Below, one piece after another: positions 1,228-19,231 of a DNA stretch of 24,589 bases. Below the pieces are notes generated by a model. The model saw only the letters and a program-made list of their open reading frames with translations. It made no database searches and was not told where the DNA came from. The translations under genes were made by a program, and so were the position numbers. Positions within the stretch are counted from its first letter, which is position 1. Each line of letters begins with the position of its first letter. This stretch comes from Abditibacteriaceae bacterium (GTDB lineage: Bacteria > Armatimonadota > Abditibacteriia > Abditibacteriales > Abditibacteriaceae), in assembly GCA_031425655.1 (NCBI GenBank), contig JANPJS010000187.1:1-24589 (forward strand), written 5' to 3'.

Positions 1228-2712
1228 TTACGACTTCAACGCCGCCACAACGTCGCGCAGTGTCGCGGCGTTTTCAACTCGTTCGACTAAAGCAGGAAAA
1301 TCGGCAAATTTCGGCAGGCGAATCGAAAAACGCTCGCCGTTTTCTTCGGCGTGAATGACACCCCACGATAGGGACTTGATATTTTCGGCGAAACGTCGCA
1401 CGAAAACGCCGCGCAACGCGGCGCGCGTTTGAGTTGGCGCTGCGTTGCGCGCCGCTTCGATTTCCTCGTCGCTGACCAGCGTTTGCATCAGGCCGGCTTG
1501 CGCGAGTCCGTAATACAAACCGGCTTCGGGATCAACGTTGTGATACGCCAGATCAAGGCTTTGCAGCGTTTCGGTATCGCGCTGCCAATCGAGCTTTTCC
1601 GAGTCGGCGAAATCGTCGAGCAGCATTTTTTTGGCGACCCAATCGAGGCGGTCGTGCAGCGAATTGGGGTCGCTTTCGAGTGCATCTAAGGTAGCTTGCC
1701 ATTCCTCGCAAATCCACTCGCTGCCCGCCATTTTCAGTTCCTGCGCACCGCGCAAAAAGCCCCGCTGCACATCAACCGCGCTGATGCTGTCGCCGTCTTC
1801 GTCTTCGACCAGCCAGCGATAAGAAGCATCGCGCGAAATCTGCTTGACGGCACGCACCGGATCGCGCAGCACAATCGGCGTGCTCCAACCGCTTTCGAGC
1901 AGTGCCACGACCAAATTGGTGGCGCCGACGCGCAGAGCCGTCGCATATTCGGACAGATTGGCATCGCCCGCGATGAAGTGCAGACGACGGGCGCGGCGCG
2001 GATCGCTGTGCGGCTCGTCGCGCGTGTTGACAAGAGGGCGATTCGCCAGCGTGTCCACGCTTTGCAGCACGCTAAAAAAGTCGGCGCGCTGCGAAATCTG
2101 AAAGGGCACGAAGGCCGCGCCGCGTTCCTCGCAGCCGACTTTTCCGGCGCCGGCGTAGATGATGCGCGTGGCCAAAAACGTCGCCATATTCCGCACCACG
2201 TCGTCCCACGGAACGCCCCGCCGCAGCACATAACTTTCGTGCGTGCCGTAGCTGGCGCCGTGAAAATCGGTGTTGTTTTTGAAGATGTCAACGCCTTTGC
2301 CGGTCGCTTCGGACAAGGCGCGGGCACAATCCAGAACGATGCGTTCGCCGGCTTTGTCATGCGCCACGAGCGAACGCAAATCACAGCATTCCGGCGTGGC
2401 GTATTCGGGATGGCCGTGGTCGTTGTAAAGGCGGGCGCCGTTAGTCAAAACGCGGTCGCAGCGGTCTTCGGTCGGAGAATTGACGCGGTCGGTGGGACGG
2501 TCGAATTGCGCGTCGGTTGTGTCCTGCGAAAGCCGTTCCACGTCGAAGCCGCGCACGTCGTGACGCGGGTTTTCCGCGCGATAATTCCACGGCCCGGCTG
2601 CGCGTCCGCGATAACTTTTCACCAAATCGCGCGAGGCGGCCACAAGCGCGTTCGCGTCGGCGCCTGCCACGGTAATGCCGTATTCGGTTTCAATGCCAAA
2701 AAGAGAATTCAT
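1228..2712 (-). CDS. dop: Pup/UBact deamidase-depupylase Dop (PafA2 family)
   Basis: N-terminal GIETEYGI, the Dop-specific loop WNYRAENPRHDVRGF, NGARLYNDHGHPEYATPEC, KNNTD..GASYGTHESY, SQRADFF, RPLVNTRDEPH, RRLHFIAGDAN, LDWVAK and DLAYH. The Dop loop and H-x-HPEY distinguish it from PafA. Confidence 0.9.
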   Translation of the reverse strand: MNSLFGIETEYGITVAGADANALVAASRDLVKSYRGRAAGPWNYRAENPRHDVRGFDVERLSQDTTDAQFDRPTDRVNSPTEDRCDRVLTNGARLYNDHGHPEYATPECCDLRSLVAHDKAGERIVLDCARALSEATGKGVDIFKNNTDFHGASYGTHESYVLRRGVPWDDVVRNMATFLATRIIYAGAGKVGCEERGAAFVPFQISQRADFFSVLQSVDTLANRPLVNTRDEPHSDPRRARRLHFIAGDANLSEYATALRVGATNLVVALLESGWSTPIVLRDPVRAVKQISRDASYRWLVEDEDGDSISAVDVQRGFLRGAQELKMAGSEWICEEWQATLDALESDPNSLHDRLDWVAKKMLLDDFADSEKLDWQRDTETLQSLDLAYHNVDPEAGLYYGLAQAGLMQTLVSDEEIEAARNAAPTQTRAALRGVFVRRFAENIKSLSWGVIHAEENGERFSIRLPKFADFPALVERVENAATLRDVVAALKS

Positions 2713-5151: not shown

Positions 5152-5189
5152 GAAACGCAGAATTAACAATAGCGAAATTTGAGCGTGAC
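5152..5189 (+). promoter_or_regulatory. GlnR-box-like array with 11-bp period upstream of the sigma gene
   Basis: GAAAC-n6-TTAAC-n6-GAAAT-n6-GTGAC at 5152, 5163, 5174 and 5185. Resembles the actinobacterial GlnR consensus gTnAc-n6-GaAAc. Confidence 0.6.
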
Positions 5190-5233
5190 CCGCACCAGTT
5201 AGCCTGAAAGAGTGACAACCGCGAGGTGACTTT

Positions 5234-6322
5234 ATGCACGCTCTTTTTTCCGCGCCGGCAGATGCGCCGGTTTTCGCTTTTGAAGACATTCCTCTGGACG
5301 ATTTAATCGCGCAGGCACAAAGCCACGATCCGGGCGCGGTCGAGCATATTTTAGAGCGGTTTCGACCGCTTTTGCGCTCGCGGATGCATCGTCTTTGGAC
5401 ATCTGTGCGCGAAGAATTGACAAGTCTGGAATGGGCCGACGTGGAAGCGCAAATTCATTTGATGTTTCTCACGCGATTGGGCCAATTCAGGCCGCAAAAC
5501 GGCGTTTATTTCGCGCATTATATCGAGCAAATGCTGACGCTTGATTGTCTGTCGTGGCTGCGTGGCCAACGGCGCGGCGTGGCGGTTCCGTTTTCGCAAT
5601 TATCCGTCGCGGATGCCGCAGACCCCGACGGCTGGCTGGGCGACGATAACGGCACTTTAGCCAGCGACGTGGAAGGCACACTCAGCCTGCGCGCGGCATT
5701 GGACGACCTCAACGACGCGCAGCGCGAAGCCGTGTGGCAGTGCTGCGTTTTAGGCCGCACCGAAGACGAAGTGGCCGCGCGTTTGGGCATTTCGCGCTCG
5801 GCGGTTCGCAACCGATTGCAAGCCGGATTGACGCATTTGCGCGAACATTTTCACGATTTACCGGACAACGCTACGCGCACCGGGCGCACTTCGACCAAGC
5901 AAGCGTTGCTCGATTTTAGAACCGAAGGAATTTTTATGGCAAAGGATGAAAAACGGCCCGACCTCATCGGCATCGGCGCGGGCCGCCCGATTCTCCTGCA
6001 AGGCGTTTTCGATTTCGAGGCGACGGGTTTCAAGACGCCGCAACTGCTTTCGCCCAAACTGCGTTACATCGTGCCGGTCGGCCACGTCGCGGGCATTCGC
6101 TTCGTGCGCGTCGGCGCCATGTGCGACAAAATGGTGTGCCTTTCGACGGTCGTCAATGGAATGCCGCATCGCTTGATTCCTGTGGCCGCCAACGCCGCGA
6201 TGCACGTTCCTTTCGCCATCGTGGAAACGATTCCCGCTGGCTCAGAAATCGAAATTCACATCGCCTCGGACGCGCCGGGAACAGTTGTCGTTGATGTCGG
6301 CGTTTTGCAAATGCCCGCGTGA
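5234..6322 (+). CDS. Sigma-70 family RNA polymerase sigma factor (regions 2 and 4) with a fused ~128-aa C-terminal beta-rich domain
   Basis: RBS GAGGTG before the ATG. Region 2: LIAQAQSHDPGAVEHILERFRPLL...QFRPQNGVYFAHYIEQML. Region 4: LRAALDDLNDAQREAV...EVAARLGISRSAVRNRLQAGLTHLR. The C-terminal extension begins at Met235 (MAKDEKRP...LLQGVFDFE...GTVVVDVGVLQM). Confidence 0.8.
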   Translation: MHALFSAPADAPVFAFEDIPLDDLIAQAQSHDPGAVEHILERFRPLLRSRMHRLWTSVREELTSLEWADVEAQIHLMFLTRLGQFRPQNGVYFAHYIEQMLTLDCLSWLRGQRRGVAVPFSQLSVADAADPDGWLGDDNGTLASDVEGTLSLRAALDDLNDAQREAVWQCCVLGRTEDEVAARLGISRSAVRNRLQAGLTHLREHFHDLPDNATRTGRTSTKQALLDFRTEGIFMAKDEKRPDLIGIGAGRPILLQGVFDFEATGFKTPQLLSPKLRYIVPVGHVAGIRFVRVGAMCDKMVCLSTVVNGMPHRLIPVAANAAMHVPFAIVETIPAGSEIEIHIASDAPGTVVVDVGVLQMPA

Positions 6323-6326
6323 AATT

Positions 6327-7181
6327 ATGGAAACACTCAATTTTTCCGGCCTGCGCGTAGTCGCTTTTGAAAGCCGCCGCGCCGATGAAATGGCCAAGCT
6401 GATCGAACATCACAAAGGCGTGGCGACCGTCGCGCCTTCGATGCGCGAAGTGCCGTTGGAACACAATCCCGAAACCCTCGCTTTCGAGCAGGCGCTTTTA
6501 GCGAACGAACTCGACATGGTGATTTTCCTGACCGGCGTCGGCGTGCGCCTGCTGGCGCGCGAAATCGAAGCGCGCATTCCGCGCGAACGCTGGACAGAAG
6601 CGCTCAAACGCACCGCGATTATCGCGCGCGGGCCAAAACCCGTCGCGGCCTTGAAAGAGTTCGATGTTCCCGTCACGCTGCGCGTGGACGAACCGAATAC
6701 GTGGCGCGAAATCATCGAAGCGTTAGACGAGCGCGAAGCCACGCTGCCACTGAAAAACCGGCGCGTGGCCGTTCAGGAATACGGCATGATAAACCGCAAT
6801 CTACTGGTCGGTTTGCACACGCGCGGCGCCAATGTGCTGCGCGTGCCGGTCTATAAATGGGCGCTGCCCGAAGACACCGGCCCGCTGCGTGCGGCATTGG
6901 AAGACATCATCGAAGATCGCTTCGACGTGGCGCTTTTCACGGCGGGCATTCAAATGTGGCATCTCTTCAAATTAGCTGGCGAAATGGGCATGGAAAACGA
7001 ATTGCGCGAGGGTTTGCGCCGCTTGATTCTGGTATCCATCGGCCCCGCGACCAGTGAAACGTTCGCGGAACTCGAATTAGTGCCCGATCTCACGCCGGAG
7101 CATCCCAAAATGGGCCATTTGGTGCGCCATGCCGCGATTCACAGCCGCGCCGCGTTGGAATCAAAACGCGCTTTGGTTTAG
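6327..7181 (+). CDS. hemD: Uroporphyrinogen-III synthase (HemD family)
   Basis: GLRVVAFESRRADEM..LI, VAPSMREVPL, DMVIFLTGVG, ARGPKP..AL, VAVQEYG, VPVYKWALPED, SIGPATSE and PEHPKMGHLV. ATG at 6327 lies 4 nt after the sigma stop. Confidence 0.8.
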   Translation: METLNFSGLRVVAFESRRADEMAKLIEHHKGVATVAPSMREVPLEHNPETLAFEQALLANELDMVIFLTGVGVRLLAREIEARIPRERWTEALKRTAIIARGPKPVAALKEFDVPVTLRVDEPNTWREIIEALDEREATLPLKNRRVAVQEYGMINRNLLVGLHTRGANVLRVPVYKWALPEDTGPLRAALEDIIEDRFDVALFTAGIQMWHLFKLAGEMGMENELREGLRRLILVSIGPATSETFAELELVPDLTPEHPKMGHLVRHAAIHSRAALESKRALV

Positions 7182-7355: not shown

Positions 7356-7393
7356 GAAATGTCCGCGTAACAAAAAATTCACTCGCATTAAAC
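7356..7393 (+). promoter_or_regulatory. GlnR-box-like array with 11-bp period upstream of nirB
   Basis: GAAAT-n6-GTAAC-n6-TTCAC-n6-TAAAC at 7356, 7367, 7378 and 7389. The core AACAAAAAATTCACT (7369-7383) matches the nasA upstream site at 14 of 15 positions. Confidence 0.6.
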
Positions 7394-7473
7394 AATTTTC
7401 GTGTGGACAAGGCGCCCGAAAGCTCGCACTTTACTTTGCGATGCAGCGTAGCGCTGCCGAAAGGATGTGCATT

Positions 7474-10032
7474 ATGGACAACCGCAAGCGATTGATTGTT
7501 ATAGGTAACGGCATGGTCGGCCACAAGTTTTTGGAGCGTTTCGCCGCATCGGGCGCGCTGGAACAGTGGCAGGTGACGACGTTTTGCGAAGAACCGCGCC
7601 TTGCCTACGACCGCGTCGGATTGAGCGGCTTTTTCGAGGGCAAAAACGCCGATGATTTGGCGCTGACTTCTCCGCTCTTTTTTCTCGAACACGGCATTGC
7701 GGTGCGCGTTGGCGACCGCGCCGCGACTATTGACCGGAGTGCCAAATGCGTGCATTCGCAGCATGGCGAAACTCTGCCGTATGACGCGATTATTTTAGCG
7801 ACTGGCTCGTTTCCCTTCGTGCCGCCGATTCCCGGCAAAGACGCGCAGGGCAGCTTCGTTTATCGCACGATTGAAGACCTCGAAGCCATTCGAGACTACG
7901 CCGCAAATTGCAAAACCGGCGTGGTCGTCGGCGGCGGCTTGCTCGGATTGGAAGCGGCCAATGCGCTGCGGAATTTAGGTTTGGAAACCAACGTCGTCGA
8001 GTTCGCGCCGCGCTTGATGTCGGTGCAAATTGACGATGCCGGCGGGCGCCTTCTCAAAAAGAAAATCGAAGATTTGGGCGTGCGCGTTCACTTGAATAAA
8101 TCCACCACGCAAATCGTGGCCGACGAAAACGGGCGCATTTGCAAGATGATTTTCGCCGACAACAGCGAGTTGGAAACCGAAATGATCGTGTTTTCCGCCG
8201 GTATCCGTCCGCGCGACGACATTGCGCGCGAATGCGGCCTCGAAGTCGGCCCGCGCGGCGGCATCGCTGTTGATGAAGAGTGCCGCACCAGCGACCCGGA
8301 TATTTTGGCGATTGGCGAATGTGCGCTGTATTCCGGGCGCATTTTTGGCCTCGTCGCACCCGGTTATGCGATGGCGAATACCGCCGTTCACACGCTGACG
8401 GGCGGTGCCGAACGCTTTACTGGCGCCGATATGAGCACCAAATTGAAGCTGATGGGCGTGGATGTCGCCAGCTTCGGCGACGCTTTTGGAGCCGCGCCGG
8501 GCGCGCAGGATTTGTTCTTTTCCGATGCCAAAGTCGGCATCTATAAAAAGTTGGTTTTGAACGAAGACGGCACGCGCTTAATCGGCGGCATTTTGGTGGG
8601 CGATGCCAGCGATTACGCCACGCTGCAAAGCTACGTCAAAGACGCCATGCCCCTCCCGGAGCATCCCGAAGACTTGATTTTACCCGTCCGCGACGGCAAA
8701 AGCGTGCTCGCTAAAGGCGTGCTTTCTCTGCCGCCGACAGCGCAAATTTGCTCGTGCGAAAACGTTTCCAAAGGCGCGATTTGCAATTCGATTTGCGAAA
8801 TGCAGCTCATGGACGTGGCGGGCATTAAAAAATGCACCAAAGCCGGGACGGGCTGCGGTGGCTGTGTGCCGCTGCTGACCGACATTCTCAAAGACGAACT
8901 GGCCAAAGCCGGAATCGCCGTCAACAATCACATTTGCGAGCATTTTCCGTATTCGCGCCAGGAGCTTTATCACATCGTTCGCGTTGAGCGATTGGCTAAC
9001 TTCGACCAACTTTTACAAAAACACGGCAGCGGAATGGGCTGCGAAATCTGCAAGCCCGCCGTCGCTTCGATTTTGGCTTCGACGTGGAACGAATACATTC
9101 TTGACGAACAGCACGCCGGACTTCAGGACACCAACGACCGCTTTTTAGCCAACCTGCAAAAAGACGGCACTTATTCAGTCGTGCCGCGCATTGCGGGCGG
9201 CGAAATCACGCCCGAAAAGCTGATTGTTATCGGCGAAATCGCGCGCGACTTCGGCTTGTATACCAAGATCACGGGCGGGCAGCGCATTGATTTATTCGGC
9301 GCTCGCGTAGATCAACTGCCGATCATTTGGAAGCGCCTCGTGGATGCCGGATTCGAGTCGGGCCACGCTTACGGCAAGGCGCTGCGCACCATTAAATCGT
9401 GCGTCGGCTCGACGTGGTGTCGTTACGGCGTGCAGGATTCGGTCGCGCTTGCCATCGAACTCGAAGAGCGTTACCGCGGCATTCGCGCGCCGCACAAAAT
9501 CAAGTCAGCGGTGTCGGGCTGCACACGCGAATGCGCCGAAGCGCAAAGCAAGGATTTCGGCGTCATTGCCACGGAAAAAGGCTGGAATCTCTACGTTTGC
9601 GGCAACGGCGGCATGAAGCCGCAGCACGCGCAACTGCTTGCTTCTGATTTGGACAAAGACACTTTAGTCGCCTACATTGACCGTTTCGTGATGTTTTACA
9701 TCCGCACAGCGGGCCGTTTGGAGCGCACCGCAACGTGGCTCAACAAGCTGGACGGCGGCCTCGAATACCTGCAAAAAGTGATTATTGAGGATTCGCTGGG
9801 CATCTGCGACGAATTGGAAAGCGAACTGGCGCACCTCATCAAAAGCTACCGCTGCGAGTGGAAAGCGACGTTGGACGACCCGCAAAAACTGGCTCGTTTC
9901 AGCCACTTCGTCAACTCGGACGAAAGCGACACCAACATCGTCTTCGTGCCCGAACGCGGCCAAATCCGCCCCGCTTTCACATCCGAAAAAGCGTTTATTC
10001 CGCTCACCACGAGAGAAACCGAATTAGTTTGA
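7474..10032 (+). CDS. nirB: NADH-dependent assimilatory nitrite reductase large subunit (852 aa)
   Basis: RBS GAAAGGA before ATG 7474. FAD motif IGNGMVGHKF, NAD motif GGGLLGLEAA, BFD Fe-S motifs CSCENV...GTGCGGC and CEHF...GCEICKP, LQDTNDRFLANLQKDGTYSVVPR, and siroheme/4Fe-4S motifs SCVGSTWCRYG and SGCTRECAEA. Confidence 0.97.
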   Translation: MDNRKRLIVIGNGMVGHKFLERFAASGALEQWQVTTFCEEPRLAYDRVGLSGFFEGKNADDLALTSPLFFLEHGIAVRVGDRAATIDRSAKCVHSQHGETLPYDAIILATGSFPFVPPIPGKDAQGSFVYRTIEDLEAIRDYAANCKTGVVVGGGLLGLEAANALRNLGLETNVVEFAPRLMSVQIDDAGGRLLKKKIEDLGVRVHLNKSTTQIVADENGRICKMIFADNSELETEMIVFSAGIRPRDDIARECGLEVGPRGGIAVDEECRTSDPDILAIGECALYSGRIFGLVAPGYAMANTAVHTLTGGAERFTGADMSTKLKLMGVDVASFGDAFGAAPGAQDLFFSDAKVGIYKKLVLNEDGTRLIGGILVGDASDYATLQSYVKDAMPLPEHPEDLILPVRDGKSVLAKGVLSLPPTAQICSCENVSKGAICNSICEMQLMDVAGIKKCTKAGTGCGGCVPLLTDILKDELAKAGIAVNNHICEHFPYSRQELYHIVRVERLANFDQLLQKHGSGMGCEICKPAVASILASTWNEYILDEQHAGLQDTNDRFLANLQKDGTYSVVPRIAGGEITPEKLIVIGEIARDFGLYTKITGGQRIDLFGARVDQLPIIWKRLVDAGFESGHAYGKALRTIKSCVGSTWCRYGVQDSVALAIELEERYRGIRAPHKIKSAVSGCTRECAEAQSKDFGVIATEKGWNLYVCGNGGMKPQHAQLLASDLDKDTLVAYIDRFVMFYIRTAGRLERTATWLNKLDGGLEYLQKVIIEDSLGICDELESELAHLIKSYRCEWKATLDDPQKLARFSHFVNSDESDTNIVFVPERGQIRPAFTSEKAFIPLTTRETELV

Positions 10033-10163: not shown

Positions 10164-10490
10164 ATGCAAAATTGGATCGAAGTTTGTGCCGTCGAGTGCA
10201 TCGCGCCCGGCACCGGCGTGTGCGCTTTAATCGGCGCCGAACAAGTGGCGATTTTTCGCATCGCCGCCACCGACGAACTATTTGCCATCGGCAACCACGA
10301 CCCGTTTAGCGGCGCCAATGTGCTGTCGCGCGGCATCATCGGCGACAAGAACGGCAAGCCCAAAGTTGCTTCTCCGGTTTACAAGCAGAACTTTTGCTTG
10401 CTCACCGGAGAATGTTTAGACGACCCGGCGGTGAAACTGCCGATTTATCCGGTGCGCTGCGAAAACGGGCGTGTGATGGTTGCGATTTAA
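10164..10490 (+). CDS. nirD: Nitrite reductase small subunit (Rieske-like)
   Basis: RBS GAAGGAG. WIEVC..I.PGTGVCALI..EQVAIFR, AIGNHDPFSGANVLSRGIIGD and VASPVYKQNFCLLTGECLDD. Directly follows nirB. Confidence 0.95.
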   Translation: MQNWIEVCAVECIAPGTGVCALIGAEQVAIFRIAATDELFAIGNHDPFSGANVLSRGIIGDKNGKPKVASPVYKQNFCLLTGECLDDPAVKLPIYPVRCENGRVMVAI

Positions 10491-10623: not shown

Positions 10624-11508
10624 TTATTTTTCAAGCGCCGCCATGCGCGCCAGCACTTTATACATGGCCTGAATGCCGTCCGCGCCGTCGCCGTTGGCTT
10701 GCGCGGCGCGCCAGAGCTGCGTAGTCAGGGCCGCGCCGGGCAGCGAGGCTTGCGCGGCTTCGGCGGCTTGAGCGACTAAGCGCATATCTTTTTGCTGCGT
10801 GTCCACCATGAAACCGGGCGCGAAATCGCCGCGCAGGATTTTCGGCGCGAGGTTTTGCAAAGCCCAACTCGCCGCCGCACCACCCGACAATCCTTCCACG
10901 ATTTTTTCGCCTTCGATGCCCATCTTCTGACACAAAACCAAGGCTTCGCAAACGCCGAGCAAGTTCATCGCGCCCATGATCTGGTTGCACAATTTGACGC
11001 CCTGCCCGCAGCCCGCCGCGCCGCAAAAGGTGATGGTTTTGCCCATCGCTTGAAACAGCGGCATCGCTGCGTCGAAATCGCTTGGTTCGCCTGCCGCGAG
11101 AATTGAAAGCGTGGCGTTTTGCGCGCCGATGGTGCCGCCGGTCACGGGCGCTTCCAAAAAACGAAAGCCGCGCGATTGCGCCGTTTGCGACAATTCGCGC
11201 GCTTTTTCAGGCGCGATTGTGCTCATGTCAATGAAAAGCGCGCCCGGCGCGGCGGTTTGGGCCGCGCCATTTTCGCCGAATAAAACCGCTTCGACATCCG
11301 GCCCATCGGTGACAACAGAAACCACGAAATGCGCGCCCTGCGCGGCTGCCTTTGGCGTGTCGTGCGCTGTTGCGCCAGCTTCGACGACCGGCTCGGTTTT
11401 GCTTTGCGTGCGATTGTAGCAAGCCACTTCGTAGCCGGCGCGCAATAAGTTGACGGCCATCGGCGCGCCCATCAAGCCGGTGCCGAGAAACGCAATTCTT
11501 TGAGTCAT
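10624..11508 (-). CDS. NAD(P)-dependent beta-hydroxyacid dehydrogenase (3-hydroxyisobutyrate dehydrogenase / tartronate semialdehyde reductase family)
   Basis: IAFLGTGLMGAPMA.NL, YNRT, FIDMSTI, FLEAPVTGG..GA, GQGVKLCNQ and FAPGF...QKDM. Start set at MTQRIAF (11508). Confidence 0.9.
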   Translation of the reverse strand: MTQRIAFLGTGLMGAPMAVNLLRAGYEVACYNRTQSKTEPVVEAGATAHDTPKAAAQGAHFVVSVVTDGPDVEAVLFGENGAAQTAAPGALFIDMSTIAPEKARELSQTAQSRGFRFLEAPVTGGTIGAQNATLSILAAGEPSDFDAAMPLFQAMGKTITFCGAAGCGQGVKLCNQIMGAMNLLGVCEALVLCQKMGIEGEKIVEGLSGGAAASWALQNLAPKILRGDFAPGFMVDTQQKDMRLVAQAAEAAQASLPGAALTTQLWRAAQANGDGADGIQAMYKVLARMAALEK

Positions 11509-11670
11509 AGATAAATCCTGAAGGGTGAAATCAAATGATTTTACAAGTAATTGAGGCGTAGGCTTTCCGAATGGATTCACGTTAAAGTAGAATCCAAAAG
11601 GAACCCAACGTGTCGAGTTCCTTAGCCAGACAAAACATGGTCCTGTCCTACGATAGAAGGCAAGTTATAA

Positions 11671-11719
11671 CAGAAAAGAAAAACCCCGCACTCGACGAGC
11701 GCGGGGTTTCTCTTTTCTG
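11671..11719 (-). terminator. Rho-independent terminator (potentially bidirectional)
   Basis: CAGAAAAGAAAAACCCCGCACTCGACGAGCGCGGGGTTTCTCTTTTCTG: a GC stem with A/T tails on both sides, 22 nt downstream of the DUF1559 gene stop. Confidence 0.8.
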
Positions 11720-11741
11720 CTTTGGTTGAAGGGAGTAAATC

Positions 11742-12527
11742 TCAGTCGTTGGCTACGGTAAAGATTTTCCAAACGTTGGCGCCGGCAGTGCCGCCGACGC
11801 GCAAACTCTCAACGCCCAAAGACTTAACGTGACCATCACAGTAGAGAACATTGAGCTTATCTAAGTGACGTTCAATGGGTTCACCGTTACCGCATTGTAA
11901 ACGGCGCGGCGTTCCTCCCACGCTCAATCCACCTGCCGCCGTATCGTTCTCCCACGCAATTTCAAAGTTGTTTCCTGCCGCATTTACATCTGCGACGAAC
12001 AAAGTCGTAGAGGGCACCACAATTTCGGAAAGAGCACGATTGTTGGGATTGCCGCCGCCTGTTCCGCCCCAATAAGCGACGTTGTAACCATAGGTGCCGA
12101 AAGGCCCGCCGGTTCCGGCAGTCTGTGTGGCTGGATTACGGTAGACATAAGGCGCACTGCCGCCACTGGCACTGGGACACGTATAAAGCTGAGTGCTCTT
12201 GACGTAAGGATAAATGCAATCCATCCAGCGCCAAGAGCCAGGATAACCAGCCCCACCCACAGCAGTCCAGGCCGGGGGCGTTGTTTCGTCGTAATCCTGT
12301 GTGTATTGCAAAAGGCCAAGGCCGATTTGCTTCAGGTTGTTGGCGCAGCTTGACTTGCGCGCGTTTTCGCGCGCACGCGCAAAAACCGGGAACAGAATGG
12401 CCGCCAGCAGCGCAATGATCGCTATGACGACCAGCAATTCGATCAGCGTGAAGCCGGAACGCCCATTTCGCGTTTTGCCGTGTGTGACGGCAGGGCCGGT
12501 TTGAAACCGGCGATTGACAAATAACAT
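11742..12527 (-). CDS. Prepilin-type N-terminal cleavage/methylation domain protein (DUF1559, H-X9-DG C-terminal motif)
   Basis: [67 protein letters not shown] and [25 protein letters not shown] before ATG 12527. Confidence 0.92.
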
Positions 12528-12584
12528 TTCTTTCTCCTCGTGCCCCTGAAGGGGTTTAAGCAATTGTGCCCCATTTCTTCAAGT

Positions 12585-12600
12585 TTGAAACCGGTTTACA
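12585..12600. promoter_or_regulatory. Putative LacI-family operator upstream of the DUF1559 gene
   Basis: TTGAAACCGGTTTACA with a perfect palindromic core AAACCGGTTT. It lies just downstream of a minus-strand TAAAAT -10 candidate (12611-12616). Confidence 0.45.
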
Positions 12601-12680
12601 CCTTCTTTCGATTTTATTGGCCGAAATCGAACAAAAGCGGCAAGATGTTCGCGGCACAGGCACTTGCTAACAAGCGCCTA

Positions 12681-12914
12681 CTAACGAGCCGCAGGACTTG
12701 AGTTTTTGCTGCCGGGCGCGATGCGTTTGGGAAGTTTGTCGGTGGACGGGCTTGATCCCGCGCTTGGTGGAATCGGTGCTTGTGACTCTGCCGGCGGCGC
12801 TGCTTTGCTACAGCCAACAACGGCCACACTCATTGACAAACCGAGCAGGCCAGCCCAAAATAAGCGCCCCGCGCTAAGCCGACCCTTCGAGACAGACTCG
12901 TAATTACTCTTCAT
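12681..12914 (-). CDS. Small putative lipoprotein with Pro/Ser-rich tail (77 aa)
   Basis: RBS GGAGAG before ATG 12914. Hydrophobic stretch LFWAGLLGLSMSVAVVGC ends in a lipobox-like VVGC. Such small genes often accompany DUF1559 genes. Confidence 0.55.
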   Translation of the reverse strand: MKSNYESVSKGRLSAGRLFWAGLLGLSMSVAVVGCSKAAPPAESQAPIPPSAGSSPSTDKLPKRIAPGSKNSSPAAR

Positions 12915-12954
12915 GCGATTACTCTCCATTTTGACATTCCCAGATTGGCAATTG

Positions 12955-14907
12955 TCAGTGCTGCACACCAGTGAGATGCGGTGCGCCGGGCAAGGACACT
13001 TGACGGGTAATGCCTTTTTCTTCATCAATTATAAAACTGCGTCCCGCCAACAAATTATCGAAATGGGACACCTTTCCGTCGGGCCAGCGCACCTTGAGCG
13101 TAGCGATTTTCAAATTAGCACCTATACCGAGCGTAGCAGGCAATTCGCTCTGAGACAAATATGATGAGCCACATCGCACCCAGCGCACGAAGCGTTCACT
13201 TTTGGTGGAAACTTCAATTAAGGCTCCAATCGCTTGACGATTGGGAGGCCGACCAGATAATTGAATTCTTAGAGCGCGATTAGCGCCTGTCAACTGCGGA
13301 AATTGTGCAGAACTGTCATTTCTGAGCAAAAGAGGTGCTGCCCCATTGCTGGTGAGCACGACATCTACGTCGCCGTCTAAATCGTAGTCGGCACAGGCCA
13401 GGCCGCGACCAACTAAGGGCGTCGCGGCTGCAGGGCCGGCGCGCTGAGCCACTTCAAAGAATTGTTTTTGGCGCTGCAAGTAAATCTGCGGAGGCTGCTG
13501 GAACGTCAGACTGGGGTTTGTCGTGGCGACATCAGCGTTGATATGGCCGTTGGCAGTGATGAAATCGGGCCAGCTGTCGTTGTCGAAATCCGCGAAGGCT
13601 GCGCCGAAGGTCGTAGATTTAAAACTACTGGAACCCATGGAAGTGAGCGGCACAATATCGGTGAAGACGCGGTCCTGATTGACCCATAATCCCAGCATTT
13701 CTTCAGAAAAATTACCGATTAGCACGCTGTCGCGCCCGGTATGAAAAATGTCGGCGGTGTCAATGCCCATACCGGCGCGCACCATGCCTTGCGAAGTGAG
13801 CGCTAATCCTGCTCTTCGTCCGACTTCCTTAAAAGTGCCTTTGCCCGTGTTTTCCAGCAAATGATTGGGTGTCATATCGTTGGCAACGGCGATGTCCGGC
13901 CAATTATCGCCGTTCCAATCGAAAACGGCGACACCTAAGGCATTTCCGGTCAGCGGGAACAATTTTCCCCCGAAAATCGGCGACGGCTGGCGCCCCACAC
14001 CGGAGGCATCTGAAACGTTCACAAAACGGGTGCCGGTGTTGCGGTAAAGATGGCTCACGCGGGCTTTATAAGCTCGCGGACGACTATAGGATTTATGAAT
14101 TCCATCTGTGCTGTAAAACGTGTCGCGCTCCGGCGCCCAATCTATGTAACGACAAACGAACAAATCCAAGCGTCCATCCCGATCATAATCGAGCCACGCC
14201 GCACTGCTATTGAAACCATTGTCAGCCACGCCGGCGCGTTGCGTAACGTCTTCAAATTTGCCTCCTCCGCGATTTCTAAAAAGCAAATTGTGTGGATAAG
14301 CCGTGATATAAATATCGGTTAAGCCGTCGCCATCGTAGTCGGCGGCGCTGGCCCCCATTCCGTAAATTTCTTTGTCCAAACCACAGCCGCGTGTCACATC
14401 CCGAAACGTGCCGTCGCGGTTGTTACGGTAAAGCGCCCCGGTGTGCGTGCGATGCAAATGCGGTGGAATATCTCGCCGCAAGGGTGCCTTCGGGCCGTGG
14501 GCTGCGCGAAACGCCTGGGTTTCCTGACGGCTCCAGGGCCGATTCTTGAAGGCGGCAATCTCTTTTTCCGTCCAATCGCGGCTGTTTACAAAAAATAAGT
14601 CCGGCCAGCCATCGTTGTCATAATCAAAAAACACGACGCCACTGCCAACGTTTTCGGGCATCATTTTCAATCCGAACGCGCCGTTGTAGTGTTGAAAACG
14701 AATGCCCGCACTTTGCGTCGCGTCGGTAAAGTAAAGCGGAGGCACGGTTTCTACGGCTTTGGCGGGCCGAGCCGCGTTTGGCGTGGGAATCGAATTTTCG
14801 CTCTGGCGCGAGCCACAACCGCTTAACAAGCCTCCCAGGCAAGTCAACGCCGCAACAACGGTTTTATAGCGCCGCATTGTTACGTAGAGGTCATTTAGAA
14901 AATTCAT
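12955..14907 (-). CDS. CRTAC1-family / ASPIC-UnbV domain lipoprotein with FG-GAP (VCBS-like) repeats
   Basis: Lipobox GGLLSGC, repeated DYDNDGWPDLF / DYDGDGLTDIY / DYDRDGRLDLF / DFDNDSWPDF motifs, GRGLACADYDLDGDVD, and C-terminal NRQAIGA...GSSYLSQS...LGIG...VRWPDG. Start is uncertain (14907 or 14877). Confidence 0.88.
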   Translation of the reverse strand: MNFLNDLYVTMRRYKTVVAALTCLGGLLSGCGSRQSENSIPTPNAARPAKAVETVPPLYFTDATQSAGIRFQHYNGAFGLKMMPENVGSGVVFFDYDNDGWPDLFFVNSRDWTEKEIAAFKNRPWSRQETQAFRAAHGPKAPLRRDIPPHLHRTHTGALYRNNRDGTFRDVTRGCGLDKEIYGMGASAADYDGDGLTDIYITAYPHNLLFRNRGGGKFEDVTQRAGVADNGFNSSAAWLDYDRDGRLDLFVCRYIDWAPERDTFYSTDGIHKSYSRPRAYKARVSHLYRNTGTRFVNVSDASGVGRQPSPIFGGKLFPLTGNALGVAVFDWNGDNWPDIAVANDMTPNHLLENTGKGTFKEVGRRAGLALTSQGMVRAGMGIDTADIFHTGRDSVLIGNFSEEMLGLWVNQDRVFTDIVPLTSMGSSSFKSTTFGAAFADFDNDSWPDFITANGHINADVATTNPSLTFQQPPQIYLQRQKQFFEVAQRAGPAAATPLVGRGLACADYDLDGDVDVVLTSNGAAPLLLRNDSSAQFPQLTGANRALRIQLSGRPPNRQAIGALIEVSTKSERFVRWVRCGSSYLSQSELPATLGIGANLKIATLKVRWPDGKVSHFDNLLAGRSFIIDEEKGITRQVSLPGAPHLTGVQH

Positions 14908-15007
14908 AAAGCTGTCAGATTCCTCTTTTGCTTGCTTGGGTGAAAAGCGATGGACTGGCTTCTTGCCTGACGGCAATTTGCAGCCTATTGCATCCAATTT
15001 TATTCTG

Positions 15008-15034
15008 TTCACAATCTCGAAACAAAAACTTCAC
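15008..15034 (+). promoter_or_regulatory. GlnR-box-like array with 11-bp period upstream of the nitrate reductase gene
   Basis: TTCAC-n6-GAAAC-n6-TTCAC at 15008, 15019 and 15030. The core AACAAAAACTTCACT (15021-15035) is nearly identical to the nirB site. Confidence 0.6.
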
Positions 15035-15150
15035 TTGAAATACATTTTCGGCACGCGGACAACGCGCAGGGCAAACGGCACTATTCAATTTGTTTTGGCC
15101 CAAAACCCTGATTTTTCAAACCCTGTTCAACGGAATCCAGCTTATTCAAT

Positions 15151-17214
15151 ATGCAAACTGCGACTCACTGTCCGTATTGCGCGATGCAATGCGGTATGAA
15201 TTTGGAAAACGGCTCCGGCCCGCTGCGTGTTGTGCCGCGCGACTTTCCGACCAACAAAGGCGGGCTTTGCCGCAAAGGTTGGACTTCGGTGGACTTGCTG
15301 GAGCATCCCGAACGGCTGACCACGCCACTGCTGCGCGAAAGCAAAAACGCATCGCTGCGCCCGGCGACGTGGAACGAAGCATTAGATCGCATTACGCGCG
15401 AAATTGGGGCGGCGCAGGCGAAATACGGACACGATGCCATCGGCGTTTTCGGCGGCGGCGGACTCACCAACGAAAAACTTTATTTGCTCGGCAAATTCGC
15501 GCGACTGGCGCTTCGCACCTCGCAGATTGATTACAATGGCCGCTTTTGCATGAGCAGCGCCGGAGCGGCCAACATCAAGGCGTTTGGTATAGATCGCGGC
15601 TTGCCGTTTCCGCTCGAAGACATCGCGCAGGCCGAAGTGGTTCTGATGGTTGGCAGCAACAGCGCCGAAACCATGCCGCCGATTATGCAGTGGTTCGCGG
15701 CGCAAAAGGAAAATGGCGGCCAGCTCATTGTGGTTGACCCGCGCCACACGCCAACCGCCGAAAGCGCCGCACTGCACCTGCAAATCACGCCCGGAACCGA
15801 CTTGGCGTTAGCCAATGGATTATTGCACGTCGCCATCCACGAAGGCCTTATTGACGCCGATTTCATCGCCCGGCGCACCAATGGTTTCGAAGAAGTGCAG
15901 CGCACCGTGGCGGCTTATTGGCCGGATCGGGTGGAGCATATCACGGGCGTGCCGGTCAAGAAAATTGTCGAGGCGGCGCGGCTTTTGGGGCGCGCAAAAT
16001 CGGCGATGATTATCACGGCGCGCGGTGCCGAGCAGCACTCGAACGGCGTCGAAACGGTGCTGGGTTTTACCAATCTGGCGCTGGCATTGGGCAAAATGGG
16101 CAAGCCGTTTTGCGGCTATGGCTGCCTGACCGGACAAGGCAACGGACAAGGCGGGCGCGAACACGGCCAAAAGGCCGACCAACTGCCCGGCTACCGCAAA
16201 ATTGACAACCCGGAGCATCGCGCCCATATCGCCAAAGTTTGGGGCATCAATCCCGAAGATTTGCCGCAAAAGGGCCGCTCTGCTTACGAATTGCTCGATT
16301 GTCTGGGACAGGAAGGCGGCGTGCGGGCGCTGATGGTTCACGCCTCCAACGTCGCGGTTTCAGCTCCGAACGCGGGACACATTCAAAAGCGGCTGGATTC
16401 GCTGGATTTTCTGATGGTCGCCGATATTTTTCTCTCGGAAACCGCCGAACGCGCCGACGTGGTTTTGCCGGTCACGCAATGGGCCGAAGAAGAAGGCACC
16501 ATGACGAATCTCGAAGGCCGCGTGCTTTTGCGCCGTCAGGCCAAAAAGCCGCCCGAAGGCGTGTGGAGCGACGCGCAAATCGTGACCGAACTGGCTAAAC
16601 GCTTAGGTTTCGGCGACTTTTTCACCGCTGAGCCGAACGCGATTTTCAATGAACTGCGCCGCGCCACTGCCGGCGGCCCCGCCGATTATTCGGGCATCAG
16701 CTACGCGCGCATCGTGGCCGAAAACGGCGTTTTCTGGCCTTGTCCTTCCGACGATCATCCCGGCACGCGGCGGATGTTTCTCGATAAATTCGCCACCGAC
16801 GATGGCCGCGCAAAGTTTCACGCCGTGCGCCACTCGCCCGCCGCCGAAGAGCCGGACGACGATTATCCGCTTTATTTCACAACCGGGCGCGTGATGGGAC
16901 AGTATCAATCGGGCACGCAAACGCGGCGCGTCGGCGCGTTGCGCGAATCGGCGCCCAATGCTTTTGTGGAAATGCACCCACTTTTGGCGAAGCATTTCGG
17001 CGTTCAAGACGGCGAATTGGTGCGTGTCGCCACACGGCGAGGCGAAGCGGAAGTCGCGGCGAAAATCACATCGCACATTCGCCGCGACACCATTTTCATG
17101 CCGTTTCACTGGGCCGGAAAACAATGCGCCAATCTGCTCACGAATCCGGCGCTTGATCCAATTTCAAAGATGCCGGCATTCAAAGTCTGCGCCGCACGCA
17201 TCGAAAGAATCTGA
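15151..17214 (+). CDS. nasA: Assimilatory nitrate reductase catalytic subunit (Mo-bisPGD, N-terminal [4Fe-4S])
   Basis: THCPYCAMQCG...GGLCRKG, FGGGGLTNEK.YLLGKFAR, IDYNGRFCMSSA, LTGQGNGQGGREHGQKADQLPGYR, TTGRV..QYQSGTQTRR and LDPISKMPAFKVCA. No C-terminal BFD domain. Confidence 0.93.
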   Translation: MQTATHCPYCAMQCGMNLENGSGPLRVVPRDFPTNKGGLCRKGWTSVDLLEHPERLTTPLLRESKNASLRPATWNEALDRITREIGAAQAKYGHDAIGVFGGGGLTNEKLYLLGKFARLALRTSQIDYNGRFCMSSAGAANIKAFGIDRGLPFPLEDIAQAEVVLMVGSNSAETMPPIMQWFAAQKENGGQLIVVDPRHTPTAESAALHLQITPGTDLALANGLLHVAIHEGLIDADFIARRTNGFEEVQRTVAAYWPDRVEHITGVPVKKIVEAARLLGRAKSAMIITARGAEQHSNGVETVLGFTNLALALGKMGKPFCGYGCLTGQGNGQGGREHGQKADQLPGYRKIDNPEHRAHIAKVWGINPEDLPQKGRSAYELLDCLGQEGGVRALMVHASNVAVSAPNAGHIQKRLDSLDFLMVADIFLSETAERADVVLPVTQWAEEEGTMTNLEGRVLLRRQAKKPPEGVWSDAQIVTELAKRLGFGDFFTAEPNAIFNELRRATAGGPADYSGISYARIVAENGVFWPCPSDDHPGTRRMFLDKFATDDGRAKFHAVRHSPAAEEPDDDYPLYFTTGRVMGQYQSGTQTRRVGALRESAPNAFVEMHPLLAKHFGVQDGELVRVATRRGEAEVAAKITSHIRRDTIFMPFHWAGKQCANLLTNPALDPISKMPAFKVCAARIERI

Positions 17215-17367: not shown

Positions 17368-18816
17368 ATGGAAAAGCAAGAATTAGTCGTCATCGGCAAC
17401 GGCATGGCCGGGGCGCGCACCGTCGAAGAAATTCTCGCGCGCGGCGGCGATAAGCAGTTCGACATCACAATTTTCGGCGATGAACCGCACGGTAATTACA
17501 ACCGCATCATGCTTTCGGCGGTGCTGAACGGCTCGCGCGAAGCCAATGATATTTTTCTGCATCCGCGAGAATGGTATGCAAAACACAATCTGACTTTGCA
17601 CGCCGGAGTGCGCGCCGAAACCATTGATCGCGTTGGGCAAACCGTGACCGCTAACAACGGTTTAACGGTGCCTTACGACCAGCTTTTAATCGCAACCGGC
17701 AGCCGTCCATTCGTGCCAACGCTGGATGGATTGAAGAAAGCGGACGGAGCGCATAAACCCGGCATTTTCGTTTTTCGCACGTTGGACGATTGCCGGCGCA
17801 TCGAGTCTTACGCCAACAAATGCAACCGCGTGGCCGTGCTTGGCGGCGGATTGCTGGGTCTTGAAGCCGCGCGCGGCCTGCTCAACTTTGGCTGCGAAGT
17901 TCACGTTATTCAGCGCGGCGAGCGCTTGATGAATCAGCAACTCGACACGCAGGCCGCGCACATTTTGGAAAGCGCGATGCGAAAACTCGGCATCAAAACG
18001 CATTGCAACAAGCGCACAACGGCGATTTTAGGCGAAGAAATAGTCACAGGTTTGGCTTTCGCCGACGGCAGCGTGCTGGATTGCGACATGGTTGTCATTT
18101 CCTGCGGAATTCAGCCGAACGTCGAACTCGCGCAGAAATGCGGCATGACCGTCGAACGCGCGATTTTGGTGGACGACCAAATGCACTCGATTGACGACAA
18201 AAACATCTTTGTCGTCGGCGAATGCGCGCAGCATCGCGGCGTGACTTATGGCCTCGTGGCACCGCTCTGGGAACAAAGCCAGGTGCTGGCCGATGTCATT
18301 ACGGGCGCCAACCCGAACGCGATGTATTGCGGCTCAAAAACCTCGACCAAACTCAAAGTTTTAGGTGTTGAACTGGCCGCGTGGGGCGTGCCGGACGCGA
18401 TTGAAGAGCAGGACGAAACCGTCTGCTACGCCGAACCAAAACGCGGCATTTATAAAAAGCTCGTCATCCGCGACGACCGGCTTATCGGCGGAATTTTACT
18501 CGGCGACATCAGCAAAGCTTGCGAACTAATGCCGGCTTTCGACCGTGGCACATTGCTGCCCGAAAACCGCGCGTCGCTGCTTTTCGAGAGCGGAACGCCC
18601 AACCGCCGTTTCACGATGCTGGAAATGCCCGACGAAGCGCCGGTTTGCCAGTGCAACGGCGTCACAAAGGGCACAATTCGCAAATGCGTGCTGGGCGGCG
18701 CCAAATCCATCGGCGCCATTATGAGCGCCACGCGCGCCTGCACCGGCTGTGGCTCGTGCAAAAGTCTGGTGCGCGAAATCGCCGAATGGGCCAATGAAGG
18801 CCAGTTGGACGATTGA
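17368..18816 (+). CDS. NasB/NirB-N-terminal-like FAD-dependent NAD(P)H oxidoreductase with one BFD-like [2Fe-2S] domain; probable electron-transfer subunit of the nitrate reductase
   Basis: VIGNGMAG, NYNRIMLS.VL, IATGSRPFVP, FRTLDDC, GGGLLGLEAARGL, GECAQHRG.TYGLVAPLWEQ and VCQCNGVTKG...CTGCGSC. Lacks the siroheme domain. Confidence 0.85.
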   Translation: MEKQELVVIGNGMAGARTVEEILARGGDKQFDITIFGDEPHGNYNRIMLSAVLNGSREANDIFLHPREWYAKHNLTLHAGVRAETIDRVGQTVTANNGLTVPYDQLLIATGSRPFVPTLDGLKKADGAHKPGIFVFRTLDDCRRIESYANKCNRVAVLGGGLLGLEAARGLLNFGCEVHVIQRGERLMNQQLDTQAAHILESAMRKLGIKTHCNKRTTAILGEEIVTGLAFADGSVLDCDMVVISCGIQPNVELAQKCGMTVERAILVDDQMHSIDDKNIFVVGECAQHRGVTYGLVAPLWEQSQVLADVITGANPNAMYCGSKTSTKLKVLGVELAAWGVPDAIEEQDETVCYAEPKRGIYKKLVIRDDRLIGGILLGDISKACELMPAFDRGTLLPENRASLLFESGTPNRRFTMLEMPDEAPVCQCNGVTKGTIRKCVLGGAKSIGAIMSATRACTGCGSCKSLVREIAEWANEGQLDD

Positions 18817-18835
18817 AGACGCTAAACTGCGCGTC

Positions 18836-19231
18836 ATGAAAATCCGATGGACACGAAACAGCGTGCGCTTTCGCATCACGCCTTCCGAGTTGCTGTGGTT
18901 GATGGGCGGAGATGAAATAGTCGAACACCTAACTTTGCCCGGCGGCTCATGGCAGGTGGAAATCGTGGTTCTGGAATCAAGCCACAGCTTTGTGATGCAG
19001 GACACGAATCAGGGCAATGTTCTGCAGCTTGTGTTGACCGAGAATGAACTCGCAGAGCTTGCCGCACCGGAAAACGAGGGCGTTTATTTCAGCACCGACA
19101 GCGAGCCGCCGATTCGCTATTTCATCGAAAAGGATTTTCCGTGCGCTCATCCACGCGCGGCGGAAGCCGACGAACCGGCGACGGAAACTTTCATCGCACC
19201 GCCCGATTTCGAGCAGCGTAAGCAAAGTTAA
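18836..19231 (+). CDS. Conserved hypothetical protein (resembles DUF7009-type small proteins)
   Basis: 131-aa ORF, MKIRWTRNSVRFRITPSEL...IRYFIEKDFPCAHPR, starting 19 nt after the previous stop and followed by a terminator. The family assignment is from recollection of the MK.R...S.R.R and EKDF.C motifs. Confidence 0.65.
   Translation: MKIRWTRNSVRFRITPSELLWLMGGDEIVEHLTLPGGSWQVEIVVLESSHSFVMQDTNQGNVLQLVLTENELAELAAPENEGVYFSTDSEPPIRYFIEKDFPCAHPRAAEADEPATETFIAPPDFEQRKQS

Follow-up and report, generated by a model that had tools for sequence, protein, structure and literature searches.

We analyzed a 24,589-nucleotide stretch of DNA from an Abditibacteriaceae genome (assembly GCA_031425655.1, contig JANPJS010000187.1, forward strand; the whole stretch is called the window below, its source genome is called G000, and the family, Abditibacteriaceae, was assigned by homologue names). 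At 5234..6322 (+) the window carries a gene for a 362-aa protein in which sigma factor regions 2 and 4 are joined in frame to a 128-aa jelly-roll domain. The data point, with a probability of about 70%, to this fusion protein being a pathway-specific sigma factor by which the Abditibacteriaceae control the assimilation of nitrate and nitrite, set in a coherent feed-forward loop that would run from a GlnR orthologue through the sigma factor to the nitrate operons. We favor this reading because the gene co-occurs with nitrite and nitrate reductase genes, because one promoter class was found at nitrate genes only, and because one genome, G014, lacks both the sigma gene and the promoter class. An earlier note on this DNA had proposed a dedicated nitrate-assimilation sigma factor, and these observations support that proposal indirectly.

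Sequence and predicted structure of the fusion protein

The fusion gene is a single open reading frame (ORF) without internal stop, and it was characterized by library matches, a homologue search and a structural model. Region 4, a helix-turn-helix at residues 142-207 (5657..5854, +), was recognized by Pfam match, model and conservation: PF08281 (sigma-70 region 4) matched residues 151-202 with E 2e-10, and the recognition-helix motif S-R-S-x-x-R-N-R-L was kept in 116-119 of 120 homologues at each position. Region 2, at residues 21-115 (5294..5578, +), is divergent yet conserved in the family, with F78, R81, F93, Y96 and D104 invariant. It had no Pfam match and was identified instead by its fold and by a family profile, which aligned region 2 of Bacillus sigmaF to it. 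The TIGR02937 model for sigma-70 factors of the extracytoplasmic function (ECF) type matched residues 36-205 with 43.6 bits, just above its cut-off of 42.9. None of the NCBIfam sigma subfamilies attained its cut-off for the fusion protein, and the nearest ESM Atlas clusters were generic sigma-70 proteins.

An AlphaFold model based on 120 homologues consisted of sigma2, a short disordered linker, sigma4, a second, variable linker whose last part is helical, and a domain built of beta strands only. Region 2 folded as sigma2 (helices 21-115), with a Z of 11.3 against region 2 of pro-sigmaK, and the structural neighbours of the sigma half were SigB, pro-SigK, SigL, SigW and SigE. The linker between sigma2 and sigma4 was about 26 aa long and of low confidence, and region 3 was absent. 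The full-length model had a mean predicted local distance difference test score (pLDDT) of 84.5 and a predicted template modelling score (pTM) of 0.42, with no confident arrangement of the domains relative to one another. Mean identity across the 120 sequences was 56% in region 2, 56% in region 4 and highest, at 73%, in the jelly-roll domain, and the DNA-contact positions of regions 2.4 and 4.2 were conserved across the same set. The earlier note had described sigma regions 2 and 4 continuing in frame into a beta-rich domain of about 128 aa, and this was borne out.

Regions 2 and 4 without region 3 are the composition of ECF (group 4) sigma factors, and an extension of more than 50 aa was conserved across the 120 aligned homologues. 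No anti-sigma gene lay beside the fusion gene in 20 loci, where the neighbours vary and no partner gene is conserved. Autoregulation from the factor's own promoter type is common in ECF sigma factors; no nitrate-type element was found upstream of the sigma gene, and its own promoter is of the GlnR type described below. The fusion protein had no Pfam match to NIT, ANTAR or LysR domains at E 0.01. By these features it would be an ECF-like sigma factor with a C-terminal extension, in an architecture that is conserved and apparently undescribed.

Distribution of the fusion and co-occurrence with nitrate genes

Searching for related proteins yielded 136 of about full-length size, of which the 120 that were listed covered 84-100% of the query. 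The named homologues among these 120 were Abditibacterium, Abditibacteriaceae or Armatimonadota, and the cultured Abditibacterium utsteinense carries the fusion. Twenty of the 27 family genomes contained the domain; in each of them 234-282 open codons preceded it, and the sigma part was in frame in 20 of 20. The sigma half was confined to the same 20 genomes and was found only together with the domain. Among 401 genomes of the phylum the domain occurred in 63, the open frames outside Abditibacteriaceae being mostly short, and no other family had the fusion. A one-off lost stop or an assembly error, which the earlier note had named as a possible refutation, was ruled out by this conservation in relatives. 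A sigma-only ancestor beside a stand-alone domain was also considered and rejected, since no copy of the fusion's sigma was found in 80 stand-alone loci.

We then compared the occurrence of the sigma gene with that of the reductases. Nineteen of the 20 sigma-positive genomes had NirA or NirB (the NirA of G010 is cut by the contig end), and the twentieth, G022, had nasC and its flavin adenine dinucleotide (FAD) subunit. Among the seven sigma-negative genomes, which belong to three genera, only G014 had NirA, and a nasC orthologue was found in none; a 46% match in G018 was at the level of a second molybdoenzyme gene of G000. The association of the sigma gene with nitrite or nitrate reductase was thus 20/20 versus 1/7 (Fisher P = 2e-5, overstated by kinship). 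Physical linkage was weaker than co-occurrence, with nitrate genes within two genes downstream of the sigma gene in 11 of 20 genomes.

A promoter class of the nitrate operons

Of 31 upstream regions extracted, 27 were given to a Gibbs sampler; left aside were two genes resembling pilin genes, one start that was misplaced, and G014, which served as a control. A composite element was common to all 27 operon-head regions (the register of G013 was shifted by hand). It consists of four 5-bp repeats with an 11-bp period at about -83 to -46, a GGACA-like -35, a 17-bp spacer and a CAYTYT -10 at -12 to -7; it often holds an extra GAAAC at -27, and an AAA tract ahead of the third repeat is strongly conserved. 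In the window, nirBD is preceded by such a promoter at 7356..7432 (+; repeats 7356-7393, -35 TGGACA 7404-7409, -10 CACTTT 7427-7432), and nasC by another at 15008..15084 (+; repeats 15008-15045, -35 CGGACA 15056-15061, -10 CACTAT 15079-15084).

A scanning matrix trained without G000's own sites gave three strong matches in 6 Mb: window 15006 (nasC, 45.6 bits), C277:14347 (nrtABC, 37.0 bits) and window 7354 (nirB, 33.6 bits), followed by a score of 12.1. The relatives yielded nine more sites; eight stood ahead of genes of nitrate clusters, and the ninth ahead of a gene interrupted by the end of its contig. These nine and the nrtABC site were outside the training set and passed on their repeats alone; C-12 was present in 9 of the 10 and T-9 in all 10. 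Over all nitrate promoters, the -10 had C-12 in 35/37, T-9 in 35/37 and A-8 in 2/37, compared with 4/20, 0/20 and 19/20 in the -10s of glnB and amt. Hexamers were selected for A-11 and T-7, a shift of one or two bases being allowed; with the register held fixed, C-12 was present in 30/37 and T-9 in 32/37 of the nitrate promoters. The -35/-10 part alone was non-discriminating (454 matches above 12 bits genome-wide); the repeats give the specificity. An exact-pattern search matched 17 of the 20 sigma-positive genomes, one (weakly) of the seven sigma-negative genomes and 2 of 34 genomes of other families, a result that is partly circular because the pattern was derived from sigma-positive genomes.

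The nitrate-type element was not found in the loci with a stand-alone domain or in the nirA locus of G014. The best nitrate-type score in G014, which has NirA and no sigma gene, was -7.7 bits, and its FNT-nirA genes were preceded by a promoter of the sigma-gene type (22.8 bits, the sole match in 16 kb). It looks as if the sigma gene had been deleted in this single case and its promoter captured.

The same promoters could be explained as weak housekeeping-sigma promoters that are activated by GlnR. The fusion protein would then be an NnaR-like activator or co-activator and not a true sigma factor, bound to DNA via the helix-turn-helix of region 4 and perhaps oligomeric through the jelly-roll domain. 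CAYTYT retains A-11 and T-7 with a 17-bp spacer behind a TTGACA-like -35, and the conserved AAA tract could be the site of a second protein. The usual stretch D-x-x-Q-E of sigma region 2 reads D-V-E-A-Q in the fusion, which together with the missing Pfam match of region 2 also fits this explanation. However, region 2 folds as sigma2 and is as well conserved as region 4, and a plain activator alone does not explain the systematic switch at -12, -9 and -8 (C, T, Y versus T, A, A). We regard this alternative as unlikely.

A protein of about 510 aa, exported and without NCBIfam match, recurred between the nrt genes and nasC (L028:15612-17210, L031:4031-5545, and G000 C277 after nrtABC), with its own nitrate-type promoter in G008; it is possibly an outer-membrane nitrate porin. 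We also observed a second molybdoenzyme cluster (48% to nasC) at G000 C222:19749-26239; it includes 4Fe-4S, Rieske, membrane and NarK-like genes, and the nitrate-type promoter had no match there.

GlnR-type sites and the promoter of the sigma gene

Four GlnR-type 5-bp sites with an 11-bp period (5152..5189, +; GAAAC-N6-TTAAC-N6-GAAAT-N6-GTGAC) lie upstream of the sigma gene. A putative housekeeping-type -10, TAGCCT with TA at -12/-11, starts 10 nt past the array (5200..5205, +). The four-site array was found before all 20 sigma orthologues, each time followed after 10 nt by TA (T-12, A-11; 20/20). The array pattern had three matches in the window, 5152-5189 being one of them, and 0 in 100 shuffles.

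In G000, an OmpR-family gene (C267:6912-7595) lies directly before glnB-glnA and is 76-87% identical across the family loci compared. Its best PDB matches were 8HIH (E 4e-41), 8HIG and 8HML, followed by RegX3 (2e-27) and MtrA. Excerpts of PMC10235972 identify 8HIH as M. tuberculosis GlnR and describe the GlnR element as gTnAc and GaAAC sites with 6-base spacing, occupied by four protomers head to tail. By these matches the gene product is closest to actinobacterial GlnR and is its predicted orthologue. The repeats before the nitrate operons, the sigma gene, glnB and amt fit this form of site (PMC10235972) and are predicted GlnR sites. GlnR-type arrays preceded glnB in 6/6 loci holding glnB and amt in 15/30 loci; the -10 of glnB and amt starts 10-11 nt past the last repeat and reads (T/C/G)ANAAT. 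The glnB/amt -10 count does not include the 15 amt loci without an array, nor L205, whose array has no suitable -10.

The locus L165 (G000 C267:6912-9695) holds glnR-glnB-glnA with GlnR boxes in a member of the Armatimonadota, and no paper on GlnR in this phylum was found among the listings and abstract openings of the open-access literature. Further on, at C267:13203 and 13983, the 3' end of glnA is repeated in two short, almost identical copies. At G000 C290:100 (+), a two-site GlnR-type promoter with TAAAAT precedes a gene for a 271-aa protein, a candidate further member of the nitrogen regulon. In other Armatimonadota, a second, atypical GlnR-like response regulator lies inside the nitrate cluster (L041:8895-9653, L237, L242, L243, L249-L251, L255) and sometimes adjoins the long stand-alone domain; L242 has no reductase within 8 kb. 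A close orthologue of this cluster-borne regulator was not found in Abditibacteriaceae.

The jelly-roll domain and its stand-alone relatives

The jelly-roll domain occupies residues 235-362 (5936..6322, +) and has a C1q/TNF-like beta-sandwich fold. Modelled alone it was all-beta with a pLDDT of 93. It had no Pfam or NCBIfam match, nothing better than E 0.002 being obtained for any of 97 family members, and no sequence match among the solved structures in the PDB. Its fold neighbours were generic jelly-rolls, the best being the Caprin-2 C1q domain (Z 9.8, root-mean-square deviation 2.6 over 105 residues). The resemblance to C1q/TNF jelly-rolls is probably one of fold only, because identities were 8-14% and 40 chains reached Z >= 8. 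In the 97 domain sequences R58, R79, D120 and G122 were invariant, one histidine was near-invariant, and no cysteine was conserved. The two invariant arginines, the aspartate and the near-invariant histidine could form an anion site.

We also analyzed proteins of 115-140 aa that consist of this domain alone. They aligned end to end with it at 30-42% identity. Annotated examples were named 'hypothetical protein' or, in a Mycobacterium copy, 'molybdopterin oxidoreductase', and ESM Atlas clusters with the latter name scored 0.97 against the domain. A scan of species genomes gave 302 confirmed matches, and the following counts refer to the best 80 of these. Nir or nas genes were near the domain in 79 of the 80 loci, with nirB directly downstream in 77 and nasA directly upstream in 56, a gene order that points to a role of the domain with the reductases. 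The loci came from Alphaproteobacteria, Acidobacteriota, Actinomycetota, Myxococcota, Armatimonadota and other taxa. The earlier note had matched the domain to the sequence pattern of such small proteins, often mis-annotated as molybdopterin oxidoreductases; the alignment consensus and the Mycobacterium annotation agree with the note, and the survey places these proteins in nas/nir clusters.

In other Armatimonadota the domain frequently comes as a pair of paralogues: the short copy lies ahead of nirB and the long copy ahead of nasC, as was true of 15 of the 17 long copies in 20 loci. In a quick tree, the sigma-fused domains were monophyletic on a long branch and grouped with the long Armatimonadota paralogue, with modest support (Shimodaira-Hasegawa-like approximate likelihood-ratio test, 89-91). 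In two Kineosporia species NasA is fused in frame to the domain (L097:3874-6348, L115:3895-6348), and an internal Met with a sequence resembling a Shine-Dalgarno (SD) site is kept. Copies without a reductase within 6-8 kb were also seen (L089 and L248, and L242, which lies beside a response regulator).

Among listings and abstract openings of the open-access literature, we found no description of the fusion protein or the domain and no function of the domain; it is not mentioned in the available portion of PMC4013037.

A probable internal start codon at Met235

The domain begins with Met235, which is preceded by the ribosome-binding sequence GAAGGA (5924..5938 with the start codon, +); the site was recognized by Met invariance, SD-like pairing and Arg codon bias. 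Met235 was invariant in 120/120 sequences; a linker stretch that spans 14-70 residues and then five positions of variable sequence precede it. In the 20 genomes, pairing with a generic anti-SD sequence upstream of Met235 averaged -6.2 kcal/mol, with 14/20 below -4, versus -2.2 kcal/mol and 17/124 below -4 at other internal ATGs; part of this signal is due to a conserved Trp codon. Independently of that codon, the Arg codons at -4 to -2 of Met235 were the rare AGA/AGG in 11/11 cases versus 21/485 elsewhere in the same genes. Genus g2 mostly lacks an SD sequence at Met235, but it also lacks one at true starts. The ribosome-binding site has probably been selected, and a free 128-aa domain would then be made by internal initiation. 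The domain boundaries given in the earlier note, residues 235-362, stand; the invariant internal Met and its ribosome-binding site had been missed.

The conserved internal start can also be explained if the fusion is a mere transcription-translation convenience. The nitrate sigma would then be controlled by GlnR-dependent transcription only, and the domain, with no regulatory role, would matter only as the free protein, an accessory or adaptor subunit of the NasC/NasB/Nir reductase complex. The position of stand-alone copies between structural genes, the in-frame fusion to NasA in Kineosporia and the lack of a confident arrangement of domain and sigma in the model (pTM 0.42) agree with such a role. 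However, a stop codon between the two parts has reappeared in none of the genomes, even with a linker that ranges from 14 to 70 residues, and the frame was kept in 20/20. Moreover, the domain is the most conserved part of the protein and is also present in G013, where nasC and the FAD subunit were not found. Its retention there and the stand-alone copies away from reductases point to regulation, and we consider the convenience explanation quite improbable.

Other genes of the window

The HemD-like gene behind the fusion (6327..7181, +; PF02602) has no DNA-binding domain, and its match to PRK07239 is limited to positions 8-272 of 381. It was found in 5 of 27 family genomes and is a local passenger outside the core of the system. 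NnaR combines a HemD-like domain with a DNA-binding domain; a split NnaR, made of the HemD-like protein as sensor and the sigma factor, was discarded because of this count of 5/27. The earlier note had placed the fusion at the head of a hemD-nirB-nirD operon: the adjacency holds in the window, but it is local, and nirBD has the promoter of its own given above. A HemD-like paralogue (64% to window 6327-7181) lies at G000 C215:9966-10947 (-; L261), directly behind the copy of the sigma-gene promoter that scored best (54.6 bits), and adjoins genes similar to the ones ahead of the sigma gene in G002 and G003. This suggests that a promoter-sigma-hemD unit was duplicated and that one copy may later have lost its sigma gene.

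The nitrite reductase large subunit gene nirB (7474..10032, +) matched TIGR02374 above cut-off; its start is probably at 7474 and not at 7129, because of the placement of promoter and SD sequence. It is followed by nirD (10164..10490, +; TIGR02378, above cut-off). Three unrelated reverse-strand genes, for a hydroxyacid dehydrogenase, a prepilin-type DUF1559 protein and an FG-GAP/ASPIC protein, lie between nirBD and nasC (10624-15012). The nasC promoter shares a few bases with the start annotated for the ASPIC ORF, so that the true start of this ORF probably lies further in. The catalytic subunit of a NasC/NasA-like assimilatory nitrate reductase is encoded at 15151..17214 (+; best family NF047855, 873 bits, below its cut-off of 1100), followed by a FAD/BFD electron-transfer subunit (17368..18816, +). 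The latter equals the N-terminal half of the NirB type that accompanies the stand-alone domain, with 55% identity to that type and 37% to the window's own NirB. These two genes lie 9 kb downstream of the fusion gene, past the HemD-like gene, nirB and nirD.

A DUF7009 gene (18749-19231, +) lies behind the FAD subunit, as in the nas clusters of G002, G003, G011, G157 and G278, and 19685-23473 (+) encodes a protein of 1262 aa in which a GAF-histidine kinase is joined to NB-ARC and TPR domains. A gene of the Pup-ligase/Dop family lies at 1228-2712 (-), and in G008 (L031) a comparable pair adjoins the sigma gene. In actinobacteria, pupylation is linked with nitrogen starvation.

Discussion

The motifs suggest that under nitrogen shortage the GlnR orthologue would bind 5152-5189 and, with the housekeeping sigma factor, transcribe the fusion gene. 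The fusion sigma would then load RNA polymerase on promoters with a GGACA-like -35, a 17-bp spacer and a CAYTYT -10. As these promoters also carry four GlnR sites, nirBD or nirA, nasC-nasB and the nitrate transporter genes would need both proteins. More tentatively, the free 128-aa domain would also be produced from the internal start. The domain may serve as an interaction module and derive from the long paralogue of Armatimonadota, whose usual place is ahead of nasC. We infer, as the earlier note did, that the sigma factor is regulated through its C-terminal extension. In the reading that we prefer, contacts of the domain with free copies of itself and/or reductase subunits would make the activity of the sigma factor depend on the state of the nitrate pathway; direct binding of nitrite or nitrate by the domain would be about as likely. 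The role of the domain is the weak link of the proposed circuit.

Several points weigh against a dedicated nitrate sigma factor. The support is comparative throughout. The domain is frameshifted in G003 and G010, an assembly error being likely for G003, where nirA is likewise fragmented. The sigma-negative genomes are 80-93% complete, and 9 of 20 sigma genes have no adjoining nitrate gene (two of the nine are on short contigs). Searches for nasC had no match in five sigma-positive genomes, among them G013 (93% complete), in which the FAD subunit was not found either; this argues against NasC as the only partner of the domain. The -35 is only moderately conserved (G-33 28/37, C-31 30/37), and the 4/20 C at -12 outside the nitrate promoters are amt promoters. 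The G014 control is one genome, and its 22.8 bits are under the leave-one-out range of 31-49. Finally, G000 has about 20 other sigma-like genes, one of which could read CAYTYT. The fusion gene would in that case be merely one more GlnR-regulated member of the nitrate regulon. The sigma gene, the reductases and the promoter class nevertheless coincide across the family, the exception of G014 included, and we consider it very improbable that another sigma factor is responsible.

The preferred reading, a nitrate sigma under GlnR, supplies a testable circuit with a regulator, binding sites, -35/-10 elements and a regulon of three operons in G000, and this in a family of which one fusion-bearing member is in culture. 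It also extends GlnR and its box beyond Actinobacteria, and it gives a handle on a small protein without family model that lies beside nitrite and nitrate reductases in hundreds of genomes. We put forward a more speculative extension, which we hold to be possible and by no means likely: the one gene might yield both a nitrate sigma and a free regulatory domain, and mixed oligomers of these, gated by nitrite or by the reductase complex, would decide firing at the promoters that require GlnR. If so, the widespread nasA-nirB orphan of Actinomycetota, Alphaproteobacteria, Acidobacteriota, Myxococcota and Armatimonadota would have a sensing or coupling role in nitrate assimilation that has gone unrecognised.

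NasR (NIT-ANTAR), NasS/NasT and NtcB (LysR, with NtcA) form a pathway-specific layer beneath a global nitrogen regulator, and the fusion protein would belong to the same layer. Unlike NasR, NasT and NtcB, it has no NIT, ANTAR or LysR domain, and its control would act at promoter recognition. To our knowledge, the known pathway-specific nitrate regulators (NasR, NasST, NtcB, NnaR) are antiterminators or activators, and a sigma factor in this role was not found in the open-access listings and abstract openings searched.

The C-terminal extensions of ECF sigma factors given by the main texts of PMC7826278 and PMC8999054 are SnoaL, TPR, Cys-rich, DUF1835 and membrane domains, and the word 'nitrate' is absent from these texts. 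Like ECF41, ECF56, ECF294 and ECF295 (SnoaL-like), ECF42 (TPR) and ECF238 (CorE, Cys-rich), the fusion protein has sigma2 and sigma4, no region 3, no adjoining anti-sigma gene and an extension of more than 50 aa. In contrast to these factors, its extension is a jelly-roll that is elsewhere an independent gene of nas/nir clusters and has kept its own start codon, and its target would be nutrient assimilation.

The earlier note had expected a regulation unlike that by NasR, NasST, NtcB or NnaR. This was correct in that a sigma factor would take the place of NnaR, but the circuit itself parallels actinobacterial GlnR plus NnaR. In Streptomyces, according to excerpts of PMC10704036, GlnR activates nnaR and NnaR co-binds the nirB promoter; GlnR and NnaR both act at nir, nas and narK promoters (excerpts of PMC6277429 and PMC11162112), and NnaR binds a CTCAC...GTGAG inverted repeat (PMC11162112). 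As in Streptomyces and mycobacteria, a global GlnR would stand over a nitrate-specific regulator, both would act at the nitrate promoters, the GlnR sites are of 5 bp with 6-nt spacing (PMC10235972, in excerpt), and the regulon is similarly small. Unlike NnaR, the fusion protein has no HemD domain; the factor of Abditibacteriaceae, in the Armatimonadota, would be of the sigma-70 type, with a -10 class of its own and an extension that folds as a jelly-roll. Unlike the stand-alone proteins of nasA-nirB clusters, the domain in Abditibacteriaceae is joined to a sigma factor.

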